DNA of 26,698 nucleotides from an uncultured Methanosarcinaceae archaeon (GTDB lineage Archaea; Halobacteriota; Methanosarcinia; Methanosarcinales; Methanosarcinaceae), in contig CAWHXP010000021.1 in the NCBI GenBank assembly GCA_963833425.1, positions 1 to 26,698 of the forward strand. The letters are read 5' to 3'. Both the position numbers and the translations under genes were made by a program. This document shows positions 7,879 to 26,697 of the stretch, piece by piece (position 1 is the first letter of the stretch; every line of letters begins with the position of its first letter). The notes under the pieces are model-generated. The model was not told the DNA's origin. It did not search any database and saw only the letters and a program-made list of their open reading frames with translations.

Positions 7879-8008
7879 TTTCTGTAGATGTACACTAGAA
7901 TGCCAGCTATTTTTTTCAATATAACAGCATTTAAAAATTAATTTAACTTTCAATGAATAATATAGACAAATAGGTAAATAAATTCTACATATGTGTACAT
8001 TTGCAGAA
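7879..8008 (+). repeat. Copy 2 of ~130-bp promoter-like repeat, upstream of the 8059 ORF
   Basis: Shares caaataggtaaataaattctaca exactly with copy 1. TATA-like TAAATAAA at 7975-7982. Confidence 0.8.
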
Positions 8009-10459: not shown

Positions 10460-10545
10460 TGGTGCGGGAGAAGGGATTCGAACCCATGAACGCCTTCGCG
10501 AAACGATCTTGAGTCGTTCACCGTTGACCGCTTGGTTACTCCCGC
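10460..10545 (-). tRNA. tRNA-Leu(CAA), intronless, CCA encoded
   Basis: GCGGGAGTAACCAAGCGGTCAACGGTGAACGACTCAAGATCGTTTCGCGAAGGCGTTCATGGGTTCGAATCCCTTCTCCCGCACCA. Acceptor GCGGGAG/CTCCCGC, anticodon stem AACGA/TCGTT with loop CTCAAGA, long variable arm, TTCGAAT T-loop. Confidence 0.96.
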
Positions 10546-11571: not shown

Positions 11572-12639
11572 ATGAACAGGTACAAAAAATGGCTTATTGG
11601 AGCGCTGTTTATCAGTGTAGCATCAATTGCGCTGGTTCTCGGTTTAACTTTTGACTCAGAAACTATTGAAACTCTGAGAAAGATCAAATTGGAATACATT
11701 CTGGCATCTGCTATTTTTCATATTTTTTCATATTTTATCTGGGGAGCACGGACACGAGCTTTATGCAAATCCTTAGGTTACGAGGTAAAGTATCTAAAAA
11801 TAGTTGAGATAATTCTTTCAGGGGTCTTTGTAGCTGGAATTACCCCCTCTTCTGTAGGTGGAGAGCCACTCAGGATCCATATGTTATACCTGAACAAAAT
11901 TCCTTTTGGCCGTGCTACATGCATAATTATAGGAGAACGCCTGCTTGATGCCTTTTTAATTTTTGCGTCTCTACCTTTTGCACTTTATATAATGGGAGAT
12001 ATTCTCTCTAATTATAAGCTCGATGTGGCATTATTAACAGCCAGTTGCCTGGCCTTCTTTGCCCTTATTTTATTTATTTATGGTCTGTGTAAGCCTGAAA
12101 AAATAAAAAACATAATATTCCAGGTCATTAGAAAATTTGCTACTATTTTAGGAAAATGGGCAGATGATGAAATTGCTCATTTCATAGAGCAGGTTGATCG
12201 GGAAATGGATATTTTCCATGAAAGTGTCAGGATCCTTATTTCGGAAGGAAAAAAAGGTCTTTTATGGGGCATGTTTTTTACCATCCTATTTTGGACAGTT
12301 GAGTTTTTTCAGCTCGTACTGATTCTCATGGGTCTTTCAAAAATACCTTCTATATTAACTGCCTTTGCAGCTCAGGTACTCCTGGTCGTTGTCATGATCG
12401 TGCCCTCAACTCCCGGAGCAAGTGGAATTGCTGAATTAGGAGCAGCTACCATCTTTTCTGTTTTTGTAGATGCATCCATACTTGGAGTTACAGTGATCTC
12501 ATGGAGAGCCTTAACATACTACATGAATCTTTTAATAGGAGGCTTCATAAGTTTGAAGGTGGTTAAAGATATGGATTTGATTAATAAGTTGATAGAGAAA
12601 TCTACAGAACTTCAGCGATCACCTGAAAAGGATATTTGA
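11572..12639 (+). CDS. Flippase-like domain protein (lysylphosphatidylglycerol synthase TM / UPF0104 family)
   Basis: ITPSSVGGEP, ERLLD, PSTPGASGIAE and WRALTYY motifs in a multi-TM protein. Confidence 0.88.
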   Translation: MNRYKKWLIGALFISVASIALVLGLTFDSETIETLRKIKLEYILASAIFHIFSYFIWGARTRALCKSLGYEVKYLKIVEIILSGVFVAGITPSSVGGEPLRIHMLYLNKIPFGRATCIIIGERLLDAFLIFASLPFALYIMGDILSNYKLDVALLTASCLAFFALILFIYGLCKPEKIKNIIFQVIRKFATILGKWADDEIAHFIEQVDREMDIFHESVRILISEGKKGLLWGMFFTILFWTVEFFQLVLILMGLSKIPSILTAFAAQVLLVVVMIVPSTPGASGIAELGAATIFSVFVDASILGVTVISWRALTYYMNLLIGGFISLKVVKDMDLINKLIEKSTELQRSPEKDI

Positions 12640-13318
12640 GATCAAAAAATGATTTCTGCGAGATCTAGGTCAGTATATTTTGTAGAATTTCCTCCTAAAC
12701 TCTTTCTGTTATTGCCTCCATATAAATAATTTACAAATTTTTGAAAAATTTTGCATTTTCGTTTTAATACTAATTGGACTGATCCATAATATTTATGGAG
12801 TATCGTTGATATAATGGCGTTATTTGATGAAGCAAATTGTAGCTGCCAAAATGAGGATATTTTATTCCACTCTGCAACGTCTTATTTTAATTATTTTAAA
12901 CTGCAACTAATGATTTAAGGTCAAAAATACCACAAAAAAATTTATTTAGCTGATACTATTTTTAATTATATAAAATCCAATTGCCTTGGAAGCATTAGTT
13001 TTTAGTGTGGATGATCAAAGTTTCGGTGGCGTGCCGCTATGCAAATTGGATTTGTTCTCGATATTGCTCTGGATATAAAGAAAATGATCTAAATTAAATA
13101 TTTTCATTTGCTGGTATATTCTTTTTTCATGGGTTTCTGACTTTCGATATAGTTTTTAATTAAATAGAAAGTTGTACCATCTCTCACATTTCCAGCGTAA
13201 CCTCCATCGCTCCAGAGCACGCACTACAACAATTTTTTTCAAGCTCAGAATATCCTTCAAAGATTTTTCTTGCTATTGATACTTTTTATTATCTACATCA
13301 CTCTCGAAGAAGTATATT

Positions 13319-13355
13319 TTGGTTCAGAACCAACTACCATAAATACCTATATTGT
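13319..13355 (+). repeat. Left boundary site: palindromic core TTGGTTCAGAACCAAC plus 18-bp arm CATAAATACCTATATTGT
   Basis: Core 13319-13334 is identical to 26682-26697. Arm 13338-13355 is the exact reverse complement of 26664-26681. Confidence 0.85.
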
Positions 13356-14134
13356 CTACAGCTTTCTTTAATTATTACTTGAAAATTAAATAATATTTCT
13401 TTATCAAGATAATAATCCTCTATTTATTCTGTACTTCGCAGGGCATCAAATAGAATATACCCATTCAATATATCTACTAGTTATGAATCTCTGCTTGACC
13501 ATATGTAACTGGTTAAGTTTGGTTGCAGTTTCTATAGTAAAACTATAGGATAGATTTCATTTTAATCTCCGGGTGAGCGAAAACTAACGAAATCTTCACT
13601 TTTCCCTAATATAAGCTATGGTTGATTAAAGTTTCACCACCCTTCAACTAGTCCATGCATTTGAAAGAGATTCAGCTTGCTTCAAAAGTGAATATGCATA
13701 TAGATTAGATTCTATCCGAAAAGTCATTAATGGCATGTTGTAAAGTATACAGGTAGGGAGCGGGAAATACACATAAACTTTATGACCTCATTAGAAGCCC
13801 ATGGTGAAGTTTAAATCATCACGCCAATATTTATTCATCAACTAGTTAAAAATTATGCTTTAGACTAATTATAAGAATCTATGTTTATATTTCACAGCTA
13901 TACCTTAAAGTATTTTCAAGCTATCAAAGATGAGTTTTTTACTATGTCCTTTTTTATCCATAAAAATATCATTTATCGTTATTATACTGATGTGGATGTT
14001 TTTGCATAAAAGTTCGTATGTTGAGATGGGAAAGTCTAATGGCTTGATACGGTTCCCACTGGCCCAGTCATTATATTATATACCGTATTTAAAAGTCTTT
14101 AAATTGAGAGAGCCTAAAGAGCCAAAAAAGCATT

Positions 14135-14172
14135 TTTAAATATAATGTGAGTATACTTGCATATACTCATAT
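14135..14172 (+). promoter_or_regulatory. arsR promoter (TATA box) with ArsR operator palindrome
   Basis: TTTAAATA at 14135-14142 followed by TGAGTATA-cttgca-TATACTCA (14148-14169), then GGTGA RBS and GTG at 14189. Confidence 0.7.
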
Positions 14173-14188
14173 ACTTTCGGTGATATCT

Positions 14189-14527
14189 GTGGATATTGTC
14201 TATATATTTAAGGCGTTGGCTGATGAAAACAGAATACGAATTCTGAATCTTTTAAGAAGCGGCGAACTGTGTGGCTGTGATATTGAATCAGTCCTGGGCG
14301 TCAAACAGTCCAATGCTTCCAGACACTTAAACAGGCTGAAAATAGCAGAAATCATTGTCTCTACAAAAAAGTCACAGTGGGTCTATTATCGACTCAATAG
14401 TTCAATTTTTCAAAAATTTCCCTTCCTTTCAATCATCATCAGCGACGAAATAGGAAAAATCAGCGTATGTAAAGAAGATTTAGAAATACTGAAGAAGATC
14501 AAAGCAAGTTGTAGATCTTGCGATTGA
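14189..14527 (+). CDS. arsR: ArsR/SmtB family arsenite-responsive repressor
   Basis: FKALADENRIRIL, ELCGCDI (variant of the ELCVCDL As-binding box), SRHL and QWVYYRL. Start moved from 14147 to in-frame GTG 14189 because of the RBS and because 14147 lies in the operator. Confidence 0.9.
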   Translation: MDIVYIFKALADENRIRILNLLRSGELCGCDIESVLGVKQSNASRHLNRLKIAEIIVSTKKSQWVYYRLNSSIFQKFPFLSIIISDEIGKISVCKEDLEILKKIKASCRSCD

Positions 14528-14560
14528 TGATATGTAGTCAGTTATAATCACAAATAGAAG

Positions 14561-15649
14561 GTGCTTTTTTTGGAAGACTCTGTTTTATCAAAATTATCTT
14601 TTCTAAATCGTTATTTGACTCTATGGATTTTTCTAGCTATGTTTATTGGTGTAGGCTTAGGCTTTGTTTATCCAGGATTTGCAGACTTTTTAAAGAGTCT
14701 ATCTATTGGTACTACATCGATTCCTATTGCCATTGGTTTGATAGTTATGATGTATCCTCCCCTAGCAAGGGTCAAATATGAGGAATTAGGCAAGGTATTC
14801 AAGAATCACAAGGTACTAGGTTTATCCTTACTAGAAAATTGGATCATTGGTCCTATCTTGATGTTTACATTGGCAATTATATTTCTTCGAGCTTATCCGG
14901 AGTATATGGTAGGTGTTATTCTAATTGGATTGGCCAGGTGCATCGCAATGGTAATCGTTTGGAATACCCTAGCAGATGGAGATAACGAGTATGCTGCAGC
15001 CTTAGTTGCCTTCAATTCCATCTTTCAGTTAATCTTCTATTCCATTTTTGTTTATATTTTTATAACCATACTGCCAGAATGGCTGGGATTAAGTGGCATG
15101 GAAATAAATGTCTCTATTGGAGAGGTAGCCCAAAGTGTTGCAATATACCTGGGAATTCCCTTTGCTGCTGGCTTTTTAACCCGTTACTTCTTGCGTCCTT
15201 CAAAAGGAGCAAAATGGTATGATAGCAAATTCATTCCTAAAGCAGGTCCGATTTCGCTTTATTCTCTACTATTCACGATCATTGTAATGTTCTCTTTAAA
15301 AGGTGAATATATTGTTACGTTGCCTTTAGATGTCGTGCGGATTGCTGTTCCACTCTTAATATATTTTGTAGTTATGTTTAGTATCTCATTTTTTGTTTCT
15401 AAAAAAATGGGTATTAACTATGCACAAACAACATCTCTTGCTTTTACTGCGGCAAGTAACAACTTCGAGCTGGCGATTGCAGTAGCAATCGCAGTCTTTG
15501 GCATTAATTCAGGGCAGGCATTTGCAGCGGTAGTAGGTCCTTTGATTGAAGTCCCAGTTATGATAGGACTTGTGAATGTGGCACTCTACTGGAGAAAGAA
15601 ATATTTTACGAAAGGTTACAAGGTTATGAAAGGTTACAAAGCTACCTAA
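14561..15649 (+). CDS. acr3: ACR3 family arsenite efflux transporter
   Basis: [27 protein letters not shown] (catalytic Cys), [12 protein letters not shown] and GPLIEVPV. Confidence 0.96.
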
Positions 15650-15720
15650 AGAAAAGTAAAAAATAAGTACTTCTGGCATTATGAAATCTATCAAAAAGAA
15701 CCAGAAATAACGTACTGGCG

Positions 15721-16203
15721 TCATTTCCCAAATGTCCGAGAGATCCAGTCTTTTAGCTCGTCTCTGACCCGCCGGAAAATCTTGAGTTTCTCTTCCTCCG
15801 ATCCTACTGCTGCGGCAGGGTCCTCAAAACTTTTGTGAATTACTTCTCTTGCTCTGGGAAACTGGGTCGGAAGCTCAAAATTCGTGCTGCAGATAGGACA
15901 GGCCACTTTAGCCCGATCACAGACCGTGATCGCCATATCAAATATGATATCCTGAAATTCTTGAGGAGTTTTTGAATGCTGACTGGAGATATCGATACCT
16001 ATTTCCTTCATGACTGCAATAGCATGAGGATTAACAGATGTGGTCTCGACTCCAGCACTGTAAGCCTCGTATCTATCTCCATAAATAGCTCTTAAAAGAC
16101 CTTCAGCCATCTGGGACCTCGCTGAATTATGCATGCACAGAAAGAGAATCTTCTTCTTCACCTGTGATCCTATACTTGTAACCATATAGCTATTATTGGG
16201 CAT
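15721..16203 (-). CDS. arsC: Arsenate reductase, LMW-PTP fold (thioredoxin-type)
   Basis: CMHNSARSQMAEG (CX5R), ITVCDRAKVACP resolving cysteines, FEDPA and FRRVRDE. Adjacent and convergent to acr3. True start may be slightly downstream. Confidence 0.88.
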   Translation of the reverse strand: MPNNSYMVTSIGSQVKKKILFLCMHNSARSQMAEGLLRAIYGDRYEAYSAGVETTSVNPHAIAVMKEIGIDISSQHSKTPQEFQDIIFDMAITVCDRAKVACPICSTNFELPTQFPRAREVIHKSFEDPAAAVGSEEEKLKIFRRVRDELKDWISRTFGK

Positions 16204-16382
16204 AAATTAGATCAACATTGCGATCGTCCCTGCATCTGGATTTTGAGAAGTTCAGCAAGCCAGAAGATTTTCGTTCTTTTTAGTTTTGTCATCTTCCAGT
16301 TGCATCCTCACTTCTTTTCTTCGATTCCTTATTCTATACTTTGCAAGCAGCAGAATTTCTCCACTCCTCCAGCGAAAATTTT

Positions 16383-17813
16383 TCAGTCCTCAAGCCCCCG
16401 AAGTTTCATGACGTAATGGTAGTTCTTCGGTGGCATCCTGGAATAAAAGGCTTGGGTTACAACTTCACTCAGAGAAGGATGAATATCCATAATGCGCATT
16501 ATTGGTTCCATGCTTCTTGATTCAGTATACATGAGAGGAATTATCTGGTGGAGCAGAACTGAGGCATGAGGCCCTATAATATGAGCACCGAGAATTTGTT
16601 TACTCTCTACATTCAGAATTACCTTTACAAAGTAGTCCTTAATTTCCAAAGCTATCCCCTTTGCAGTGTCTTCAAAGAATTTGAGGCCTATGCTCACCCT
16701 ATCCACTCCATACTTTTCCACAGCTTCTTTCTCTCCCATACCTACCCCGGCAATTTCAGGATAAGAAAATACTGCATGTGGTACAGCATGGTAGTCTGTC
16801 TTCACTTTTTCTTTCAGGATGGCATTCAGGTAAACTATTCTGGATTCATAGCTTCCAACGTGCTTGAGTTGATAGTTTCCGGTTGCATCGCCAAAAGCCC
16901 AGACATTTGGCTGAGATGTCTCAAGATACTCATTCACCAAAATCCAGCCCTGTATATCTGTTTTGATTTCGCCCCTTTCCAGATGAAGAATATCAGTATT
17001 CTGAGCCCTTCCAGTTGCTACTAGGATCTCATCTACAGTAATCTTTACTTCGTCTCCTGAATTTTTTTCCTTTGCAATTACGGTCTTTTGCCTATTATCT
17101 TCCTTTCTAACTTCTATGGCCTCATAGTTTGTAAGGATCTTCATATATTCTGACATTTTCATCCTAGCAAGTTTGGAGATTTCTGGTTCTTCTTGCGGGA
17201 GAAACAGGGGATTTCTTCCAATTACAGTGACTTCTGCTCCCATAGCCGAGAAAAAATGCCCATATTCGGCTGCAATATAACTTCCTCCGAGAATTGCTAG
17301 ACTTCGGGGACATTCATTAAGTTGGAGTACAGTATCGCTTGTAAGATAACCAGCTGCTTCAAGCCCTTTAATAGGCGGGATGGCAGGCTTTGAACCAGTG
17401 CATAGGAAAATCATTTTTGAGTAAAGCTTTTTGTCGCCTACTTTTAAGGTATAAGGAGAAGTAAACTCTGCACTTTCATGGTAGTAGTCAATATTCGGGT
17501 TTCCGGTTACCCCCTCCAGAACCGCTTCTATATTTTCTCTTGTAATCCTTCTCATCCTTTCTATTATTGCAATGAAATCAATATCCCTTATTTCAGCCTT
17601 TATTCCAAAAAGAGATGCAGTTCCAAGTTCCCTGATAAGTTCCGCAGGATAAAGCAAAATTTTTGAAGGAATGCACCCCTTAGTAAGACAGATTCCACCG
17701 GGTTCATCTTTATCGATAACAGCAATTTTTATTTCTGGATTCGAATCTATAATGGGGTTTATATAGTTCATTGCAGAACCAGTACCTATTACCATCAGGT
17801 CGTAATTTTCCAT
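16383..17813 (-). CDS. Class I pyridine nucleotide-disulfide oxidoreductase (dihydrolipoamide dehydrogenase / mycothione reductase-like)
   Basis: GGICLTKGCIPSK redox disulfide, GGSYIAAE, ATGR..N, FGDA and C-terminal HPSLSE. No C-terminal Cys pair. Confidence 0.88.
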   Translation of the reverse strand: MENYDLMVIGTGSAMNYINPIIDSNPEIKIAVIDKDEPGGICLTKGCIPSKILLYPAELIRELGTASLFGIKAEIRDIDFIAIIERMRRITRENIEAVLEGVTGNPNIDYYHESAEFTSPYTLKVGDKKLYSKMIFLCTGSKPAIPPIKGLEAAGYLTSDTVLQLNECPRSLAILGGSYIAAEYGHFFSAMGAEVTVIGRNPLFLPQEEPEISKLARMKMSEYMKILTNYEAIEVRKEDNRQKTVIAKEKNSGDEVKITVDEILVATGRAQNTDILHLERGEIKTDIQGWILVNEYLETSQPNVWAFGDATGNYQLKHVGSYESRIVYLNAILKEKVKTDYHAVPHAVFSYPEIAGVGMGEKEAVEKYGVDRVSIGLKFFEDTAKGIALEIKDYFVKVILNVESKQILGAHIIGPHASVLLHQIIPLMYTESRSMEPIMRIMDIHPSLSEVVTQAFYSRMPPKNYHYVMKLRGLED

Positions 17814-18495
17814 TCGTTACTCTCCACGATATAAAATCGCTTTATTGTCCCGGGAATTATATTGGAACAATTTCTCATTTGCATTTAAAGCTAAGGTTAT
17901 TCATAATATAACTATGTGAGTTTATAAATTTTAAAGCACGATCTAATTTGAAAAAATGTTATCATTCTTGACCCTTAAGATTCCGCGCTCTTTGATCCCA
18001 CAGGGTTATTCTAGAGAGATGAAATCTCCGTCCTTGACCATGAAAACTGAGTGGAACTGGGGCATTATGAACATCAATGAAGTATCAAAAATAGATCTTA
18101 TAAATTGTGGGTAAGGTACACTATACATCAAAGAGTTCCTTGACAATTTTTACTCTCAGATACATAAATACACTCAAACATTTTATTAAGGGGTCTATGC
18201 TAAAGTGCATTTATGAATCAGGATATATTAACTGAACATGACATAAATATATATTTTTTGCATATAGCATATATAGTTATATTTTAACTAATTAGTGTAA
18301 ACTTGTGTGATCCTAATTCCCACTTTAAATTTTACCGGATAAAAAAATAAATGCAGACGACAGTATTAGCAGCAGAATTCATAATTGTCAATTTAAAGGT
18401 AGTAAGGAAATTTTGGAAAATCTACAATATCAAAGTAACTCGAGGAACGGCAGTTACTTCAAAGCCATGCGTTTTAACTCGTTTTTGCTATTTGA

Positions 18496-19410
18496 TCATC
18501 GGGAGTGTTGTAAAGACGGCTCAATATGTACAATTACATCAGAAATATCCTTATATTTGTCCCTCAGCTTTTTGCTGACCCTGTGAGAGATAATATGGGC
18601 ATCTCTAAGAGACATCTCAGATTGAACAAGTAGATGCATATCGACCCTGATATCTCCCATACTCCCACGTGTCCTGATTTTATGACAATCATTTACTCCC
18701 TCCATTCTGATAATTAATTCCCTTATTTCCTTCTCTTCAATCCTGGACATATCTAGAAGGGATCTAGAGCCCTCTTTTATAATTTTGTACCCGGCCCTGA
18801 AAATTATAAAAGAGATAATTAAAGAAACTATAGGGTCAATGATAGGAAAACCTAACTCTATGGCAGCAAGGCTTACTATGACCGATAGAGAGGTATAAAG
18901 ATCACTTTTCATATGTATAGAATCTGCTATAAGCACCTGATTTCTGAGAGATTGACCCTGTCTATACTCATATCTTGTAACCAGATAATTAATACACATT
19001 GTCCCAAGCACTATGAGGAAACTCACAGCAGTAACCTCGGGCTTGTTTAATATAAGGAAATGGTCTAGAGCGTTTCGGAAAATTTCAACGCCTACAAAAA
19101 TTAACAGTAATGCAATAAAAACAGAGGCTATTGTTTCATATTTTCGGTGTCCATAAGGATGATCTCTGTCCGGTGGGTGGGATGCAATAACACTTCCAGC
19201 TAATCCTATAATGTTGGAGATCCCATCAAAAAAAGAATGATAGCCATCTGCAATCATGCTTAAAGCGCCGGTTTGAGTCCCATAAATAACTTTTGCAAAT
19301 GCTACTACGAGATTTAGAATTAGTGCATAGATAAAAGCTCGCTGGATTTTTCTAAACTTTTCTAACAAATCTGATACCTTGCAATGGAATTTTACGGAAC
19401 CTGAATACAA
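18496..19410 (-). CDS. Cation diffusion facilitator (FieF-like) transporter
   Basis: ADGYHSFFD, HPYGHRKYE, ADSIHMKSD and C-terminal AH.ISH...VIVHIEP. Start uncertain, possibly ~40 bp downstream. Confidence 0.93.
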   Translation of the reverse strand: MYSGSVKFHCKVSDLLEKFRKIQRAFIYALILNLVVAFAKVIYGTQTGALSMIADGYHSFFDGISNIIGLAGSVIASHPPDRDHPYGHRKYETIASVFIALLLIFVGVEIFRNALDHFLILNKPEVTAVSFLIVLGTMCINYLVTRYEYRQGQSLRNQVLIADSIHMKSDLYTSLSVIVSLAAIELGFPIIDPIVSLIISFIIFRAGYKIIKEGSRSLLDMSRIEEKEIRELIIRMEGVNDCHKIRTRGSMGDIRVDMHLLVQSEMSLRDAHIISHRVSKKLRDKYKDISDVIVHIEPSLQHSR

Positions 19411-19595
19411 AGTAGTTAAAAAAAGCTTAACGCAGATAAACTAGTAGTAATGAATTATCAACAATATATTAATTTATCCTTTTGTTATTCATAGGATTCA
19501 TGCAAGTTTGTCTTTTCGTAGGTTCTACAGGGCAGCAATAACTCATAAATAAAAGAACTTAAGCTTCCTAAATAAGGATTCTCGTATGAAGAATC

Positions 19596-20045
19596 TTAAC
19601 TAGTTAAAGACCTATTACCTTCTCCAACCTTCTCAAACTTCTCTAGAATCTGTTTTCTAAGTATATCTGCTTCCTTGACTGTTATCTCAACATTTTCGTT
19701 TATATTTTCTGAAACAACATTCATTTTACGATATACCCGCCTGCCAAAATCGTCTGAGAACCGCCTCTCCAAAATCCACATGCAAACTTGACAATTTCCT
19801 GCATCAACTGCTTCATTTAGTCTCTCAAGACATTTTTTAGCCGCTTCCGCATTACATTTTTGGATATATTTGAAAAACTGATAACACTTCCCAGATTTCT
19901 CTGTCTGCCCCCTTTTAAGCCAGGAATTGAAACTTTGGTAGGTTACGCCAGCTGCAGAAGCAGCAAGGTTATAAGTCAACCCGAGCGATACATTTTCACC
20001 GATTTTCTGTTGTATTTCAGGCGTGAGTTTCGAAGGACGTGGCAT
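19596..20045 (-). CDS. Terminase small subunit-like HTH protein
   Basis: MPRPSKLTPEIQQKI...AASAAGVTYQSFNSWLKRG HTH, a helical oligomerisation-like segment, and WILERRFSDDFGRR, a pattern I associate with phage TerS-like proteins. ATG 20045 has a GGTG RBS (ORF track starts at 20123). Confidence 0.6.
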   Translation of the reverse strand: MPRPSKLTPEIQQKIGENVSLGLTYNLAASAAGVTYQSFNSWLKRGQTEKSGKCYQFFKYIQKCNAEAAKKCLERLNEAVDAGNCQVCMWILERRFSDDFGRRVYRKMNVVSENINENVEITVKEADILRKQILEKFEKVGEGNRSLTS

Positions 20046-20702
20046 GATAACACCGTTTTTTATTTTCTTAGAGTTAATATTAGTGAATCTTGTATTAAAT
20101 GTTTCTTTAGTTCCCTTAGGCATGGAGCGGATTATGGGCTATACTCAGGCGTTTTTAAACGTTTTTTGACTCTGCGAATGAGTATTATAGTTTTCAGTAA
20201 AAGTCTCTCTGTTGAGCTAAGATTAAGTCGTTTTTAGCAAAACTAAATCCCCATGTTTTTTCTACCATAGCACGGTAAGTACCTTCGAGATATTTTGCAT
20301 ATACTTTTATTACTTTTAAATAATATAAAATATGTAATGAGCTATAATTACTTAGATTTTGAAATAGGACTTCACATAAATTTCATATTCTTTAGTTTTA
20401 GGTCGTGAAATAAGAATACACTCAAAAAAGTCAAACTGCTTAATAGACACAGGTTTGTGATAAGTATCGAGCAAAAACGACCGATTGTGGGGCGATGTAA
20501 GGCATTTTCTTGAGTAGAGTAGGGTTATTTCTCAACAGATGAAGTATAAGTCTGTTGTAGGGGCCGAGATTCAGTTATTTACTTAATGGCCTGGAGAGAG
20601 TTACCTATTGTGCTATCAATGCTATAGGGATCCCAAGAAAACGAAACCAAAAATTTAGTTTGAAGGCTCAATATTGATCTGATCTTTCTCCAACTTCATC
20701 AC

Positions 20703-21023
20703 TCATTCTCTTTCAGAATCTTCCCATATCACCGTAACTCTAGGACTTTTACCACGCTCACGAATTGATGTTGTTATCATTCCCAAATCTACCAATTCTT
20801 GTAGGGCCCTTGTGAAAGATCTTTTATTAACACCAAAAATATCCTTTGCTGTAGAACTGGAAATAACAAGATCTGTTTTTGTTTGCTTTAAACCTTTAAC
20901 ATACCAGATATACAAAGCTAATTTAGTAGCATTTATATTACCTTGTAGCAGCAAAACGTTCTGAATCCAAGAAAGTGGAGTATTGGGTACAAAATGATAT
21001 TTGAGTTTTTTCTTAATTACCAT
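20703..21023 (-). CDS. Small winged-helix DNA-binding protein (replication-initiator-like)
   Basis: ATKLALYIW...SSTAKDIFGVNKRSFTRALQELVDLGMI...RGKSPRVTV is a wHTH pattern. AGGT RBS. Follows polA in the same orientation. Confidence 0.7.
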   Translation of the reverse strand: MVIKKKLKYHFVPNTPLSWIQNVLLLQGNINATKLALYIWYVKGLKQTKTDLVISSSTAKDIFGVNKRSFTRALQELVDLGMITTSIRERGKSPRVTVIWEDSERE

Positions 21024-21080
21024 ATTATCTACCTATATAATATTAAATAATAGAAAGATCTAAAAATAATTAATAGGACG

Positions 21081-21144
21081 GAGTAGAATCCATGTCTATT
21101 TAAATAGTCACAGATTCCGATGTAAATAGTCATAAATTCCTATG
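21081..21144. repeat. 22-bp iteron-like repeats (two tandem direct, one inverted)
   Basis: TAAATAGTCACAGATTCCGATG (21101-21122) and TAAATAGTCATAAATTCCTATG (21123-21144) match 19/22. A degenerate inverted copy lies at 21081-21102. Confidence 0.75.
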
Positions 21145-21153
21145 TTGTGTTTA

Positions 21154-22581
21154 TCAAGCACCAGAATTTTTGGCTTTGATTTCTTGTATAATTCTTAGGA
21201 TCTTATTCCAAGTCTCAACTCCCCTAGGGTCAGAATATCTATCGGGGTATTTAATGACAGTAGCTTCCGTTTTAATGGAATTGCCAGGCCCCAAGACTAT
21301 GGAAGAAGCTTTGGTCATTAATTTCTGGGCTTGGAAAATAGTCTCATCGGCTTCTTCCTCATCACACTCAATGAGAATTGCGTCGTGGATTGGAGCAATC
21401 ATTTTGATATTATTTTCGACAAGACGAATGCAAGCGACTCTGAGAATTTCCGCACCCGTAGCTTGACAAGGGAAATTTTTGATTGTTCTCCCTTCTTTCT
21501 TCTCTCCCCCAACAATGTGCATTTGCCACCCAAAACAGGTAGTTATCCTTCTGAAAAGAAGAGTGGTATCCAGGACATGATCACCCCAAGCCCAATATTG
21601 TTGGTAAACTCTCTTGTGGTGCCTTAGTAATTCTTTGGCGTAAGGAGTTGATTTGCCTATACGCAAAGCCAGACTATCGGGACCCATACCATATTGAACC
21701 CCCAATACACAAGCTTTAAAAAGATCTCTTGCAGCTTTATGAGTCGATTTTGTTGCTTCCTGTGGCACTGCTCCGGCCTGTTTTGCAAATGCTAAATAAG
21801 GATCTTCTGACTCATAGGCTGCTTTCATTTCAGGATCTTTCGACAAAGCAGCCGCAATACAAAATTCTTGCTGAGAATAATCAATGTAAGCTAGCACTTT
21901 ACCTTTTTCAGGTTTAATCAGGCTTCTAAGCCAGACAGCTGGACCAAATATGAATTTACTTGTGCTTGGTTGATTTCTTCCAGTTTTAGAAGCAAACGGC
22001 GAAAGTAAGCATCGATTTCTACCGTCAGACCCAACAGGAATTTCTGAAAGTCTCAATTGTCCCAAGATATACCGAAGATCTTTCAATCCCTGGAGCTGAG
22101 GATGAGAATTCACCATGTCCTTGAAAGTCTCCTCCTTTAGCTCTAAATACCCCTTCTCAGTCCTAGGCCAAGAAATCCCATTTGTACTCAAATACTGTTC
22201 AAACTTAGAAATCTTGAATGTGGTGCCTTCATATACTCCATAAGAGCTATCGATTTCCTGAACTAATTTTTCTTTAATTAAAGTCCAATTTTCCTTTAAA
22301 CCTGTTAAAGTTTCAATATCAATTGGAATCCCATTATACTCCATTATTGCTACCGTTTCCATATACTTACCGCGAAAAAGTGCTGTACCGATATCAAAAC
22401 TGCTTTCAGCTGCTATTTTTTTAAATAGTTCTACTGTTTCCATAACATCAGATGCACAATAATCCATAATGTAGGTTTTTTCTTCGTCAGTATAGGGAGG
22501 GCCTTGCAATATCTTCTGTCTAGCGCTTTCCTTTTCTGATTCCGCTATAGCTGCGATTCCATATTGTTGACAAGCCCCCAA
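21154..22581 (-). CDS. Family A DNA polymerase, C-terminal part (Exo III plus polymerase domain); downstream piece of a frameshifted gene
   Basis: YCASDV (Exo III), SKTGRNQP, motif A IDYSQQE, motif B RDLFKACVLGVQYG, NFPCQATGAE and motif C IHDAILIE. Confidence 0.92.
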   Translation of the reverse strand: MGACQQYGIAAIAESEKESARQKILQGPPYTDEEKTYIMDYCASDVMETVELFKKIAAESSFDIGTALFRGKYMETVAIMEYNGIPIDIETLTGLKENWTLIKEKLVQEIDSSYGVYEGTTFKISKFEQYLSTNGISWPRTEKGYLELKEETFKDMVNSHPQLQGLKDLRYILGQLRLSEIPVGSDGRNRCLLSPFASKTGRNQPSTSKFIFGPAVWLRSLIKPEKGKVLAYIDYSQQEFCIAAALSKDPEMKAAYESEDPYLAFAKQAGAVPQEATKSTHKAARDLFKACVLGVQYGMGPDSLALRIGKSTPYAKELLRHHKRVYQQYWAWGDHVLDTTLLFRRITTCFGWQMHIVGGEKKEGRTIKNFPCQATGAEILRVACIRLVENNIKMIAPIHDAILIECDEEEADETIFQAQKLMTKASSIVLGPGNSIKTEATVIKYPDRYSDPRGVETWNKILRIIQEIKAKNSGA

Positions 22582-22909
22582 CAGACTTTTTGAGACACCA
22601 GGTAGCCCAATTAGTAATTATTCTGAATTCAGGGTACAAATCAACCACGTGAACGGGCAAAGGCCAATTTAGAGCTAAATGACAGCCCCACTCGGCAGAA
22701 CTAAAATATGCAATGAATAAATCAGTTTCATCCATAGGGTATGGTGGCTTAATGGTCAAAGGGTCATTTCCCTCTATCCATACTTTTTTAGTTTCCCCAG
22801 AAATGATTTCGTGCGCTACAACACATACAGGTTTTGACTTTTCTCCCGAATCAGCGATAAATTCAAAATCTATTACAAAAATATTTTTAAAAGATAGGAG
22901 CATTTTCAC
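22520..22909 (-). CDS. Family A DNA polymerase, N-terminal 3'-5' exonuclease fragment (frameshift at ~22609)
   Basis: Exo I motif VIDFEF and DLYPEFR. Removing one base at 22609/22610 fuses it in frame to the polymerase ORF (TNGLPGVSKSLLGACQQYG). Confidence 0.85.
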   Translation of the reverse strand: MKMLLSFKNIFVIDFEFIADSGEKSKPVCVVAHEIISGETKKVWIEGNDPLTIKPPYPMDETDLFIAYFSSAEWGCHLALNWPLPVHVVDLYPEFRIITNWATWCLKKSVGGLSTIWNRSYSGIRKGKR

Positions 22910-23478
22910 AGCTCCCCTCTAAGTTGCTTCAAGACTGGATGATCTATCGAATCAATAATCTTATTTTTAAAAGCAATATTTAAAGCATCTTTTATTGTTT
23001 TTGGTTCCTTTGGCCATTTAGGTTCAGGCAACTCGCCTTTTGCGAGGGATATTTCATAAGCACCTAGAGCCTTGTTAGCCTTGATCCGAACCCATTTTTT
23101 CGTGCCAATTGCGTATGATTCTCTTCGAGTTCGGTTGTATCCATTATCTTTACCGTCTTGATCGGGGAGTGGGACGTCTGAAAGGAAAAATATTTTGTGG
23201 GTATGTGTTATCAAAGTGTAGATCATTACAGGCTTTAACCTTCCAATATCCATTACGTCTGAGATCAGCTCCGGAGCTACGATATATTTTTCCTCATCCC
23301 CTTCATTCAAATCGAGAAGATACAGTGAGAAAGTCCACTCCGAGTCGTCTCTAATCCTAAAAAATTCGTATGCATTCGGCTTTCTTATTGGAATGGTAGT
23401 GATCAATTTTTCGACCATCATTCCAGCCACAAAAGTGGGTGACAATTTGACACTATCAAAATCGAAATCCACTCTCAT
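22906..23478 (-). CDS. PolA-associated hypothetical protein (possible ssDNA-binding or replication accessory factor)
   Basis: 190 aa, beta-rich and aromatic (TTIPIRKP..EFFRI, KKWVRIKAN..GAYE, PEPKWP, IIDSIDHPVLKQLRG). Stop overlaps the polA start (GTGA). Function is a guess. Confidence 0.65.
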   Translation of the reverse strand: MRVDFDFDSVKLSPTFVAGMMVEKLITTIPIRKPNAYEFFRIRDDSEWTFSLYLLDLNEGDEEKYIVAPELISDVMDIGRLKPVMIYTLITHTHKIFFLSDVPLPDQDGKDNGYNRTRRESYAIGTKKWVRIKANKALGAYEISLAKGELPEPKWPKEPKTIKDALNIAFKNKIIDSIDHPVLKQLRGEL

Positions 23479-23512
23479 GCTCTCCTGAAATCTTTCGGAT
23501 TATGGTTTTTAG

Positions 23513-23674
23513 TCATTCTTTGTTGCCACCCGCAATTTGTATAATTCGTTTTGCTATGACTCTTTCCAGGGGGTCAGTGCTCTTCCTCATATGTTCCAAG
23601 ATGTCAGGATATCGAGAGTTTACACGCTTTGACCATTCCACAAATAATAAATTACTTTGGGTCATATTTTCCAT
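23513..23674 (-). CDS. Small hypothetical protein (53 aa)
   Basis: MENMTQSNLLFVEWSKRVNSRYPDILEHMRKSTDPLERVIAKRIIQIAGGNKE. AGGAG upstream. Fills the gap between the AbrB gene and the 23478 ORF in the operon direction. Not in the ORF track. Confidence 0.7.
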   Translation of the reverse strand: MENMTQSNLLFVEWSKRVNSRYPDILEHMRKSTDPLERVIAKRIIQIAGGNKE

Positions 23675-23900
23675 AGCCGGTACATCTCCTTAAAACGGTG
23701 GTTGTTGTCGGTGTTCCGGTCCCCTTAGAGCCTTGGTCGGACTGAGGGACCGGGCAAATCTGTAAATTTCCGTCTTCTAATAGTTCGATTCGTACTTGAT
23801 CACTTTTTTTCATTTCGTTGCTTGTGATCCATTCACTAGGTAGAGAGACAAAAAACGAACCCCTTACCTGTTGAATTTTTTTATTTTTAAATCTAAACAT
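23652..23900 (-). CDS. AbrB/MazE/SpoVT-family DNA-binding protein
   Basis: KKIQQVRGSFFVSLPSEWITSNEMKKSDQVRIELLEDGNLQICP swapped-hairpin pattern. Confidence 0.85.
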   Translation of the reverse strand: MFRFKNKKIQQVRGSFFVSLPSEWITSNEMKKSDQVRIELLEDGNLQICPVPQSDQGSKGTGTPTTTTVLRRCTGYGKYDPK

Positions 23901-23952
23901 TTTACTACCACTATTTCTTACTTATGAAATTACATGTATAAATATCTGAAAA

Positions 23953-24005
23953 TGATATTCTTCAGGTTGAATATCACCTGGATATTAGAACTAAACTATA
24001 TCCAG
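23953..24005. promoter_or_regulatory. Clustered inverted repeats (putative operators) in the divergent AbrB/wHTH intergenic region
   Basis: TGATATTC-N8-GAATATCA (23953-23976), CAGGT-N8-ACCTG (23963-23980) and CTGGATAT-N12-ATATCCAG (23978-24005). Confidence 0.55.
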
Positions 24006-24063
24006 TACCCCTATAAAATGTAAAATAACAAAGCTTAAGATCCAGCAGTTTATGTAATTTCAT

Positions 24064-24738
24064 ATGAATGATGATGAAAATGAACAAAAGAGGAGAAGCC
24101 CAGGCGAGCGTTTAAATAAAAACGAAGCAAAAATCGAAATTCTCAAGTACATTCTCAGTAAAAATGATTTGGTATCAGGGCCAGATATAATAAAATATAT
24201 CCAGAAAAAATGTAATCTAGTAGATGAGAACAACATTAGGTCTCACTTGAAAGGTTTAAGACAAAAACATTGTATCGAAATAATTCCACGAGATCCGGGG
24301 TTATATCATAAATGGAAAATTGAAGAATTAGGAACTTTGCGGAATATACGAAAACTCTATCCTGAGATACAATTAAATAGATATGATCAGGCTTTAAATC
24401 TAATCCTTAAAGAGCAAATCATTAAAGGATATCCATGTATAGATGCTATTCATGCCAAAGAGCTTCGTATTCAGTTGTCCCATTCGATTCACTTTTTTGA
24501 TAAGTGCTTGAAAGATAACTTTAAAACCTTATACGATGATGTCGAAGATATTTACAGACTCGGTAAACGTGCATATTGTTGTGAAAATCTCAAAAATCAT
24601 GCTTATGAATCCCCTACCAAACTTCTATACCCGCTTGAACTCTCTCTCCGTACTGTTACCGAAACTCTTTTGAATATGTACTTAAAGATGGAGAGGCTTT
24701 TGTTATACTCTAATTCTCACCTGTCAGTTAAGGACTAG
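24064..24738 (+). CDS. Winged-helix transcriptional regulator (putative element repressor), C-terminus possibly truncated
   Basis: KIEILKYIL...GPDIIKYIQKK...ENNIRSHLKGLRQKHCIE wHTH pattern. Divergent from the replication operon and ends next to the IS remnant. Confidence 0.65.
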   Translation: MNDDENEQKRRSPGERLNKNEAKIEILKYILSKNDLVSGPDIIKYIQKKCNLVDENNIRSHLKGLRQKHCIEIIPRDPGLYHKWKIEELGTLRNIRKLYPEIQLNRYDQALNLILKEQIIKGYPCIDAIHAKELRIQLSHSIHFFDKCLKDNFKTLYDDVEDIYRLGKRAYCCENLKNHAYESPTKLLYPLELSLRTVTETLLNMYLKMERLLLYSNSHLSVKD

Positions 24739-24750
24739 GGTAGGTTATGA

Positions 24751-25431
24751 CTAAATAGCAGAACAAGTTGCCCTTCCAGTCACATTTTTCTTAAAAGGGA
24801 TATATGGCTCACACCAATACATTTGCTGCGTCAAAATTTTTGCGAGACGAATAAGCTAAGTCAGCAGAAATCTCATTCATTGCGCAGCCTTCTGATGCCT
24901 GATTAATCAATTGGCTAAACTGTGGAGAGTCATTGTAATCCCATCAATTATGATCACAGAAGCGACTGTGTTGATCTTTACACCCACACATATAAGCCTT
25001 AAGGCACTTATTGTTCTTTGCTCTGTCCATGTTCCATTTCGTTGCATATGAGGAATGTGATTGATCTGAATCCCGTAGAATCGACGACGAAATTAGTAGC
25101 TAATCCGGCTACTGATAATGCAGATACGTAGACCAATTTCTGTAAAATTGGAGTAATATCTAGATGTTGAAGAGTTTTGATGGCGCATTGAAATGGGTTG
25201 CGTGTTCTATTTGTCCTTTTTCAGTTGCATTCTGAAAGAGACTAAATGATGACGGCTGGATAACTGAGAGTACACTTTCTGAATGGCACAGAATAGAGAT
25301 TCATGAATTAACAAGCTTGGCCTTCCTATTGTTTGCCTTGGTTCAGGGATTGCCACAACTAAATCTTTCAGCAATTCATCAAATAGCTCGACTTCCACAT
25401 TTTAAGCTTCGTTATGAGCCGTCCATGCTTG
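24751..25431 (-). pseudogene. Degraded DDE transposase (IS5/IS4-superfamily-like) internal fragment
   Basis: Across frameshifts and stops: QAWTAHNEA*NVEVELFDELLKDL..GRPSL..KVYSQLSSR / HFNAPSK / FVVDSTGF / DSPQF / ISADLAYSSRKN / PYIPFKKN. The N-terminus and the third catalytic-residue region are missing. Confidence 0.82.
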
Positions 25432-25497
25432 TTAGTCATTTGGAATTTGAAATCAAGAGATGTAATTTTGAGTTTTGGGATCAGCTCTACGAGAAAG

Positions 25498-26634
25498 TTA
25501 TTTTCCTGCTTTGAGCATCATCTCCTTTAACTTAGAAATTTCTTCAAGTTCCTGTTTTAACACATTTTTCATTTCCCGGATTTCGTTCAGATCTGCAAAT
25601 TGCATATAATCGGTTTTTACGGATTCTACAGTGGATGAAGCTTCCTGCGTAAGTGGCAGTCCACATTTAAAACAAAATAAAGCATTATCTGGATTTATTT
25701 CCTTGCAACGTGGGCATTTGTTAACAGTGAATTTTTTGGTAGCTTCTTCAGTTTCGATTCCATGTAATTTAAGTATAGCATTATCCACGTCTCGGCCTGA
25801 CATATGCACATATATACTCGCCATATTACTCGATTTTGTCCAGCCTAAATATTCTTTTAAAAGTTGTTCGGGTAATTGTTCGGCTAAGTGGGTTGCTCTG
25901 GCATGTCTAAAAGCATGTGGGTAAACCCTTTTTTGTTGAATACCCGCTCTACTAGCTATTTGGTGGAGTCGATCTGCAAGTCCTACAAATGTGACGACTC
26001 CAAAAGGAGAATTAGTTGAACAGAATAGGTAAGCATCGAGATCATTCTTAAATGGATGCGTGTCAATCCATTGTTTAAGGTAAGACGAAGCTAATACAAG
26101 CCTCACGCGGCGACTTCCTGTATTCCCTTTCTGTATATTAAGAATTGCCCCATTCTCGTCAAAAGTCACATGCTTAAGTTGAACCGCTAGTAATTCTCCC
26201 CTTCTAGCTCCACTTTCATAAAAGGTAGCAATTATAGCCCGATCTCTGTTACTTAGACATGAATCAATTAATTTTTCAATTTCTTCGCGAGTCAAAATAT
26301 CTTCTGGGATTTTCCCATTTTTGAGCGTCCGCAATTTTATTACGGCTCCGAGTTCATGATTTATAAAAGTCAAAAATTTTTTTAAAACCGTTCGGATTTT
26401 TTGTTGTGTACCAGGCGAGTACTTAACTGCCTTACCAGCTTTGATGTATGTATAGGCATTTATAAAATCCAGATAATCGTAAACATCGTCTGTAGTAAAT
26501 TCCTTTAATTCTCGATCTCCACACCATTCTATGAACTTTATAAGTGTATATTCAGCAGTTGCAATTGTCTCTTCCGTCAGTCCATCTGCTTGACACTTCC
26601 TTAAGTAATCTTTTAAGATCTTTGAATTATCCAT
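25498..26634 (-). CDS. Tyrosine integrase with C-terminal zinc ribbon (SNJ2-like archaeal family)
   Basis: YESGARRGE (R), HAFRHARAT (HxxR), LGW and IYVH (Tyr), plus CPRC...CFKCG zinc ribbon and a coiled-coil tail. Confidence 0.93.
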   Translation of the reverse strand: MDNSKILKDYLRKCQADGLTEETIATAEYTLIKFIEWCGDRELKEFTTDDVYDYLDFINAYTYIKAGKAVKYSPGTQQKIRTVLKKFLTFINHELGAVIKLRTLKNGKIPEDILTREEIEKLIDSCLSNRDRAIIATFYESGARRGELLAVQLKHVTFDENGAILNIQKGNTGSRRVRLVLASSYLKQWIDTHPFKNDLDAYLFCSTNSPFGVVTFVGLADRLHQIASRAGIQQKRVYPHAFRHARATHLAEQLPEQLLKEYLGWTKSSNMASIYVHMSGRDVDNAILKLHGIETEEATKKFTVNKCPRCKEINPDNALFCFKCGLPLTQEASSTVESVKTDYMQFADLNEIREMKNVLKQELEEISKLKEMMLKAGK

Positions 26635-26663
26635 ACTAACTTGATAGAATTAATCATAGATAA

Positions 26664-26697
26664 ACAATATAGGTATTTATGTTGGTTCAGAACCAAC
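26664..26697 (-). repeat. Right boundary site: 18-bp arm plus palindromic core GTTGGTTC-A-GAACCAAC, overlapping the likely integrase promoter
   Basis: ACAATATAGGTATTTATG (26664-26681) then TTGGTTCAGAACCAAC (26682-26697). Starts 30 bp upstream of the integrase ATG. ATAAATA TATA-like element on the minus strand within the arm. Confidence 0.85.

Follow-up and report, generated by a model that had tools for sequence, protein, structure and literature searches.

What is bounded by two identical 16-bp sequences that lie in direct orientation 13.4 kb apart in the genome of an uncultured Methanosarcinaceae archaeon? They occupy positions 13319-13334 and 26682-26697 of a stretch of 26,698 nucleotides (the window; GenBank assembly GCA_963833425.1, contig CAWHXP010000021.1), which is the entire contig C21 of a genome (G000) of 4.07 Mb in 21 contigs that is 80% complete. 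An initial annotation, made from the letters alone, took these cores and the 18-bp inverted arms just inside them for attachment sites or transposon-like ends. Sequence comparison confirmed that the two cores are identical and that the arms (13338-13355 and 26664-26681) are exact reverse complements. We consider it likely that the repeats are the left and right attachment sites (attL and attR) of a 13,363-bp integrative element, and that one clade of its integrases came to use a site in tnpA, the transposase gene of IS200 insertion sequences (IS).

The orthologous site is empty in related genomes. The left flank of the window is present in four of the five relatives searched, and in three of these (G045:C15, G021:C52 and G044:C4) the alignment to the window ends exactly at 13334, after which one uninterrupted core leads into the 5' half of tnpA. 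The seven bases between the half sites read CAGAACC in two of these relatives and CAGAATC in the third, and are followed by AACG, as at the window's end. The arm is absent from the empty sites, and no element interior was found in the ~1.2 kb beyond them. In the fourth relative (G049:C56) the same tnpA copy carries another left end of the family, ~80% like that of the window, whereas the left end on contig C18 of G000 is 98% like it over 132 bp; judged from these sequences, a separate insertion in G049:C56 is the simpler reading. Two contigs from sequencing runs (X1 and X6) also follow the left flank and depart from the window at 13334-13336, and we do not count them as evidence.

Comparison of all ends refined how the repeats are divided. 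The cores and arms are as annotated, but the trinucleotide 'tac', which had been placed between core and arm, belongs to the left arm across all ends, where the element-side repeat begins at AAC (13332 and, reading inward, 26687). The arms of the window are imperfect inverted repeats of ~30 bp (24/30 identical) around a 7-bp overlap, and an end consists of host GTT, exactly seven bases and a ~30-bp element arm. Among 81 ends outside tnpA, 70 have G at -10 and 73 have T at -9, and the seven intervening bases are variable. The arms are not chance repeats, since an arm weight matrix gave 22 matches in G000 and none in one block-shuffled copy, and reversed-pattern controls for the arm and site patterns gave none. 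In the scan of G000 and at the family ends examined, the arm was always found at an element/host junction, and of 28 metagenome loci the 22 that extend to the start of the integrase gene (int) all had it. The arm pattern occurred in 3 of 151 genomes of the family and in none of 116 from other genera, counts from a sample that do not prove absence.

The empty orthologous sites and the arms at junctions support the annotation's proposal that the repeats are attL and attR, here as the ends of a tyrosine-integrase element. Two situations had been named that would speak against it, namely relatives without the int-polA module that keep the ars-CDF block contiguous with the left flank, and a motif that is a common operator or promoter unlinked to insertion boundaries; neither is the case, because the relatives have an empty core without element interior and the arms sit at junctions. 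The suggestion that the contig ends at an assembly break in a repeat also fits: the window stops one base beyond the right core, and its right-end 6 kb recurs at ~94% on contigs C1, C6 and C18 of G000, a very repeat-rich genome in which sequences with at least three self-matches cover 19% of bases. Neither end is derived from a tRNA gene, as had been stated; the window's sole tRNA gene, tRNA-Leu(CAA) at 10460-10545, lies 2.8 kb left of attL and is not used by the element.

The sequence outside the cores identifies the target. In G000 these flanks are a dispersed repeat which, read on the minus strand, is IS200 tnpA. The left flank of the window matches nucleotides 196-443 of an intact gene from G009 for a 148-residue Y1 transposase (PF01797, E 7e-36), and the right flank on C6 matches nucleotides 1-211 of the same gene; the insertion break thus falls in the codons just after the HUH motif (residues 61-63). 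The annotation was therefore right that the target is not a tRNA gene and overlooked that it is a multi-copy IS200 tnpA relic. G000 holds 37 matches to PF01797, of which 23 exceed the cut-off and 22 of these contain stops, and a DNA profile finds 90 tnpA copies, 55-61 of which, depending on the cut used, span the insertion site. The site consensus in tnpA, TTGGTT-7-AACGAA, matches the arms well on either side, and the copies share related 7-mers at the position of the overlap. The site pattern is commonest in the genomes that also carry the integrase family (G044, 27; G021, 13; G045, 12; G049, 12; G000, 8), and also in G020 (10). Young IS200 copies, 95-96% alike over ~600 bp and with no full-length frame, lie on contigs C3, C4 and C5 of G044 (L251-L254), and the interrupted tnpA copy on G044:C1 belongs to this young group.

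Among 59 genomes searched, integrases of 86-95% identity were found in G000, G021, G044, G045 and G049, and integrases of 68-74% identity in G017 and G058. We scored 111 ends from the first five genomes, sampling 69 of 102 left-end matches and 22 of the 30 loci represented by 59 right-end matches and scanning the whole of G000. Ends in tnpA, in register and in the same direction, make up 17 of 83 left ends and 11 of 28 right ends. The 17 left ends represent ~14 loci, as the outer flanks of three G044 ends have 680 bp in common; another end is the orthologue of the window locus, and for one the flank is too short to judge. The count of right ends may include duplicates in G044. The 22 right ends from metagenomes, near-duplicates included, comprise 10 in the tnpA register by hidden Markov model, one by eye, one reversed and 10 elsewhere. 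The flanks form 61 clusters in all, over many of which the remaining ends are spread, so that tnpA is the main hotspot and not the sole target; many of the ends outside tnpA also lie in repeats.

Other recurrent targets include an IS-like repeat with 24-94 copies, the gene resembling a small terminase subunit (TerS) that the family itself carries (G044:C5 and G049:C25) and a site near the IS200 5' region (G045:C11). One recurrent target outside tnpA is used in both directions, and the recurrent-target clusters also include G021:C12, G021:C97, G049:C103 and G049:C36:66771. Left ends exceed right ends by ~3:1 (83 versus 28 scored, with uneven sampling), and many left ends have no partner nearby. 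No left arm was found within the 19.9 kb examined for G058 or G001; a looser arm pattern found right arms alone in G058 and G017, and one further arm in G017. In G001 (L018/L169) an integrase of 48% identity lies immediately ahead of a host gene, the start of which overlaps the expected att region, and the arm-pattern search found no arm at that locus.

The 7-bp overlaps are diverse among elements and mostly alike within them. There are 73 distinct 7-mers among 110 ends, and in six of nine candidate pairs the two ends agree over the letters available: five pairs are identical (C21, C18, G044:C1, G000 C8 and, outside tnpA, G049:C33), and G045:C4 is identical over the five letters available. In G045:C16 six of seven letters agree, and the left 7-mer is that of an empty site on G000 C13. 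At tnpA right ends the overlap takes nine forms that differ at up to several positions, and the register is constant. This pattern fits conservative exchange with some tolerance of mismatch, as for tyrosine integrases, for which identity of the 7-bp overlap is described as the norm (PMC10111431; bioRxiv 10.1101/2023.11.06.565760). A left end at G000 C8:326408 and a right end at C8:399365 share their overlap and are both flanked by tnpA; 73 kb separates them, and they face opposite directions. From their sequence they look like one element split by an inversion.

The integrase is uninterrupted and starts 47 bp inside the core. It is an ordinary recombinase of two domains followed by a Zn ribbon at the C terminus. 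It has a PF00589 catalytic domain (E 5.5e-21) and a PF13495 domain, and matches XerA, XerH and Cre by both sequence and fold, with Tn1549 Int also among the fold matches. R144, H240, R243, W265 and Y275, as well as E147, are invariant in 24/24 integrases. Position 171 is lysine in the 23 other rows and asparagine in the window copy; the assignment of K171 as the catalytic lysine comes from this conservation, and the pairwise HMMER alignment sets K169 against the XerD lysine. The label 'SNJ2-type' given by the annotation is not supported, because the published residue signature is absent. As defined in PMC5861418, SNJ2-type integrases have Gly/Ala in place of Glu/Asp(I) and Ala/Val in place of His/Trp(III), and nearly every member has an att that overlaps a tRNA gene; here E147 and W265 are invariant and no tRNA gene is targeted.

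Integrases beside tnpA right ends are closely related to one another. On a tree of 34 rows built without codons 1-50, the tnpA label changes twice, against a mean of 11.4 for shuffled labels. With six near-duplicates dropped, E22 is found in 17/17 tnpA rows and 0/16 others, and Y29 in 17/17 and 1/16; three of the tnpA labels are indirect (C21 by its empty site, L165 by a BLAST match and L233 by eye). The sister integrases have V22 and T29 as alternative residues. Two loci, L014 (off-target, drawn inside the tnpA clade) and L231 (reversed in tnpA), carry this other helix type. In the predicted structure (pLDDT 78.6, pTM 0.50) residues 22 and 29 lie seven apart in a helix spanning 21-38, a face of which presumably contacts DNA, as in Cre and Xer structures. 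Binomial enrichment values (4e-15 or 7e-5, by denominator) and Fisher values for the residues pool related genomes and overstate the effect, and we do not rely on them.

The bias towards tnpA might have a different cause that leaves the attL/attR assignment intact. If the integrase has a loose preference for GTW-N7-WAC, acquisition of a tnpA-type overlap could hold a lineage at tnpA, with E22 and Y29 as mere passengers. We regard this as rather unlikely, though it is the most serious of the alternatives: the two ends of an element mostly have the same overlap, the 7-mers of tnpA copies are related, the E22/Y29 signature belongs to one clade, and the mv4 integrase is reported to accept any overlap in vitro if the sites match (bioRxiv 10.1101/2023.11.06.565760). 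However, the overlaps at tnpA right ends vary at up to several positions while the register stays constant, and the off-target and the reversed insertion both carry the other helix type. Homology-independent transposition of the Tn916 kind between terminal inverted repeats, with tnpA as no more than the best-matching repeated site and the 7-mers as either coupling sequences or a duplicated target, seems improbable. The diversity of 7-mers and flank clusters, the reversed insertions, the two pairs with unlike overlaps and the fold match to Tn1549 Int would agree with it. Exchange by the Tn916 mechanism is expected to leave unlike 7-mers at the two ends, but seven of the nine candidate pairs are identical or one base apart, and neither an arm-binding domain nor a DDE transposase was found among the module genes scanned with Pfam and PHROGs. 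Less probable again is that the bias is an after-effect of a few old insertions that were copied with their surroundings, or assembled repeatedly, and kept in neutral, dead IS DNA. Near-identical right flanks on C1, C6 and C18, the outer flank shared by three G044 left ends and the high repeat content point that way. Yet the 17 left ends at ~14 distinct tnpA loci share one nucleotide register, the window locus is empty in three relatives, neutrality fails to explain one position within a 450-bp gene, and a variety of outer flanks without relation to each other, all in this register, has already largely been seen.

Two further alternatives concern the repeats themselves. The annotation had speculated that the junction formed on excision is a palindrome acting as a cruciform origin or hairpin-telomere site. 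The in silico fold that it described was reproduced (an 18-bp stem, a 4-nt bulge and a 6-bp stem, -19.0 kcal/mol), and an arm-arm hairpin formed in all six pairs folded. But four of these six predicted junctions fold as plain arm-loop-arm structures with mismatched stems (-8.9 to -20.3), and a self-complementary core is confined to 4 of 109 ends scored, from two loci (the right end of the window being too short to score). Hairpin-telomere systems combine a conserved perfect palindrome with a telomere resolvase; here the palindrome is not conserved, and the matches listed for the integrase include XerA, XerH and Cre and no telomere resolvase. Since the palindrome is a property of this one overlap sequence, such a role is unsupported and very unlikely, and the self-complementary core is, on sequence grounds, an accident of the window's overlap. 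Hardly credible is the idea of a common operator or promoter motif that has no link to insertion boundaries. By eye, a TATA-like stretch lies in the arm ~40 bp ahead of the int start, but the arms mark element/host junctions with a fixed host GT at -10/-9 and are missing from empty sites. An operator or promoter function as its sole role is refuted; the motif may have a second role as int promoter. The claim that excision alters the promoter context of int is weak, since int would keep its arm and the 47 bp ahead of it, and only the sequence beyond the overlap would change.

Several observations nevertheless weigh against attL and attR sites recognised by a tnpA-specific clade. The right flank of the window consists of four bases only, and the right flanks on C1, C6 and C18, being 98-100% identical, represent one locus or a recent duplicate. 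Most ends examined (83/111) are not scored as tnpA and sit at diverse GTW-N7 sites, and survival in neutral DNA adds to the bias, because 19% of the genome is repeat-covered and many of these other ends lie in repeats. Two ends are reversed in tnpA (G000 C3:157599 and L231), so that the rule of conservative exchange is not absolute. Overlaps are unlike in the pairs G049:C36 and L231, of which the former may be a rearrangement because its right 7-mer is that of a left end on C89. The causal role of E22/Y29 is a hypothesis, because the tnpA integrases form one clade, and the place of L014 inside that clade is insecure (approximately unbiased (AU) test, p 0.37). Left ends at tnpA are not one clade (nine changes for 13/59; AU p 0.001), which requires either that left halves are shuffled between elements, as the mosaic interiors of the elements would support, or that other integrases also reach tnpA. 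Finally, no joint of right to left end, as expected of an excision circle, appeared among the joints listed for contigs of four runs, each holding at most 10% of the query words; 24 sequencing runs were checked for these words and none exceeded 10%.

On the reading that we prefer, an integrative element whose integrase clade recognises tnpA, the integrase would bind inverted core sites and exchange strands across the 7-bp overlap. The excised circle would carry an attP in which arm, overlap and arm adjoin int. Matching overlaps would mostly be needed, with some mismatch tolerated, as for lambda-type enzymes. The clade marked by E22 and Y29, in the second helix of the N-terminal domain, would have come to use the tnpA site, for which dozens of mostly dead copies provide many low-cost landing pads. 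For replication the circle would rely on a swappable module of its own, here PolA, and by means of TerS it may travel in the heads of a helper virus, the weakest step of the scheme.

The features of the window are collected in Table 1. From the right end inward the order is int, a probable regulator, AbrB, a replication module, the TerS-like gene, cargo and a conserved left end of 240 bp. The module of PolA and a 190-residue protein occurs in C21, C18, G045:C16, G045:C13 and G049:C33, and PolA is a single frame of 582 residues in the C18 copy; by eye, other primase- or polymerase-like open reading frames (ORFs) replace it in G049:C36, G045:C4, G044:C1, G058 and G000 C8. Cargo differs in every copy mapped, and a paralogous block on C20 is 88.6% identical to the window's arsC-oxidoreductase-exporter block. 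No capsid gene was found among the 13 element ORFs scanned (all with Pfam, 8/13 with PHROGs). The window copy is probably decayed and grounded, given K171N, the frameshifted PolA and the shortened regulator, unless an intact sister integrase were to act in trans; assembly errors of indel or base type are possible in it, because C1 and C18 show frameshifts elsewhere.

Table 1. Features of the element and its target in the window
Feature	Position	Strand	Evidence or remark
Decayed IS200 tnpA, 3' half, host side of attL	13091..13324	-	74.8% over 250 nt, E 8e-40
Host core-type half site B (TTGGTT)	13319..13324	+	same 6 bases at empty orthologous sites
attL 7-bp overlap CAGAACC; tnpA codons just past HUH motif	13325..13331	+	strand exchange presumed at its edges
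Left element arm, imperfect inverted repeat of ~30 bp	13332..13361	+	
Conserved left-end stretch (~240 bp with arm); possibly accessory attP sites	13362..13570	.	conserved over aligned left ends, variable beyond
Cargo: arsR and acr3	14147..15649	+	PF01022, PF01758
Cargo: arsC-type low-molecular-weight phosphatase, pyridine nucleotide-disulphide oxidoreductase, cation diffusion facilitator (CDF) exporter	15721..19410	-	PF01451, PF07992, PF01545
Terminase small subunit-like (TerS) gene	19596..20123	-	phrog_4102, E 4.9e-21; homologues in most mapped elements
Small DnaD/replication-initiator-like ORF	20703..21023	-	phrog_186, E 5e-5, weak
Family A DNA polymerase, two frames, frameshift near 22520-22581	21154..22909	-	PF00476, E 2e-28
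190-aa protein, co-occurs with this PolA type	22906..23478	-	no Pfam or PHROG match
AbrB/MazE-type regulator	23652..23900	-	PF04014, E 2e-6
Probable regulator (putative role), 224 aa versus ~400 aa in most relatives	24064..24738	+	no Pfam match
Tyrosine integrase, 378 aa	25498..26634	-	SAM-like, catalytic and Zn ribbon; E22/Y29 type; K171N
Right element arm	26658..26687	-	
attR 7-bp overlap, same as attL	26688..26694	+	
Host half site B', first four bases (start of tnpA 5' half); contig end	26695..26698	+	same as bases after overlap at empty orthologous sites

The conserved left-end stretch has no Rfam match and no clear codon periodicity, and its frames are broken in most copies. A frame of ~45 codons (window 13370-13560, minus strand) is uninterrupted in several left ends, and the window has a broken version; to judge by its sequence, it may be a relic gene or encode a small protein. 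TerS-like genes are multi-copy in G000. At L166 (G045:C13 175800-193876), a nifH-like gene, two P-II genes and D and K subunits (by eye) lie inward of TerS; this nitrogenase cluster stands beside a tnpA-type element, and the contig ends before the left end, so that it may or may not be cargo. Linked to the 74%-identical integrase of G058 (L167) are, by eye, a primase-like ORF and genes of a type I restriction-modification cluster.

Elsewhere in the window, the first ORF is one that we take to be MtrE-like, and such gene content suggests that the archaeon is a Methanosarcina. A 76-nt sequence occurs three times (788-866, 2878-2960 and 7931-8008; 84-88% alike, one copy inverted) between genes of a membrane/glycosyltransferase cluster and is a possible shared regulatory element. 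An LPG-synthase-like gene (11572-12639) is flanked in four relatives (L201-L204) by inverted repeats of ~175-195 bp that are 84-100% alike; it is flipped in G049, and the window keeps just the right repeat copy (12803-12982). It could be an invertible segment or an IS scar.

The element shares features with several known systems. With classical (non-suicidal) archaeal tyrosine-integrase elements, among them those that use coding-gene attB sites (BJ1, Msmi-Pro1 and NitGar-E6; PMC8371274), it shares an intact int beside att, SAM-like and catalytic domains, a short direct-repeat core and a target that is not a tRNA gene; unlike them, it targets a multi-copy transposase relic, so that one genome holds several elements in paralogous sites, and its sister lineages use many unrelated sites. 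Helper-embedded phage-inducible chromosomal islands (PICIs; PMC10111431) likewise have a clade of integrases that target a gene belonging to another mobile element, a 7-bp exchange segment, and zones for integration, regulators, replication and captured genes. The layout here agrees in having int at one end, regulators, a replication module, TerS and no capsid genes among the ORFs scanned. It differs in that the target is an IS200 gene and not a prophage late gene, the host is an archaeon and no helper has been seen so far; in place of an AlpA/Stl-type regulator and a primase-helicase there are AbrB, an unclassified ORF and PolA, with no match to AlpA, or primase-like ORFs (by eye, in G049:C36, G058 and G000 C8). 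The mv4 phage integrase (bioRxiv 10.1101/2023.11.06.565760) also recognises inverted, degenerate core sites, and the 7-bp overlap between them can have any sequence if matched, but it has arm-binding sites and one tRNA target, and the overlap rules proposed here come from genomes alone.

According to PMC5861418, SNJ2-type integrases have in common with this family the R-K-H-R-Y pentad and an att outside int, whereas here the Glu and Trp are kept, no tRNA gene is targeted and the host is not a haloarchaeon. The suicidal integrases of SSV and pTN3, in which att lies inside int and splits it, differ from this one, whose gene stays whole. Tn916 and Tn1549, which have a tyrosine recombinase, many target sites and a short variable sequence between inverted ends, are similar in these respects; the present ends mostly have matching 7-mers, and no arm domain, Xis or conjugation genes were found among the genes scanned with Pfam and PHROGs. 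Casposons and pipolins are also integrative elements of self-replicating type with their own DNA polymerase and inverted ends flanked by a direct repeat, but here the polymerase is of family A (PF00476) and not family B, a tyrosine integrase stands in place of Cas1, and no tRNA gene is targeted. A search of viral_contigs confirmed no relative of int. Neither an integrase aimed at IS200 tnpA nor this family appeared in the titles and abstract openings searched, which include few subscription papers (the supplementary tables on SNJ2 could list further targets), and the passages of PMC13626063 and PMC12884075 to hand contain nothing on IS targets.

These comparisons suggest a familiar chemistry; what surprises is the class of target, together with the promiscuous sisters and the candidate two-residue switch. 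More tentatively, and with somewhat less than even confidence, we propose that these elements are PICI-like archaeal satellites with a nearly promiscuous ancestral integrase (GTW-N7-WAC), one clade of which gained specificity for the active-site codons of tnpA through two presumably DNA-facing changes, E22 and Y29, in one helix. Such satellites would parasitise and knock out IS200, insert safely into its dozens of relics and carry metabolic cargo from one methanogen to another inside the heads of helper viruses. The way in which integrases acquire or switch targets has long been debated, mostly by comparison of distant families; it becomes directly testable here because sisters of 86-95% identity do not use the same targets, two residues form a candidate switch, and many pairs of target and overlap occur naturally. 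For Methanosarcina genetics, an integrase with many sites and a changeable 7-bp overlap could prove a useful tool. The family carries varied cargo between methanogens, here arsenic and metal genes, and may be an archaeal counterpart of PICIs.

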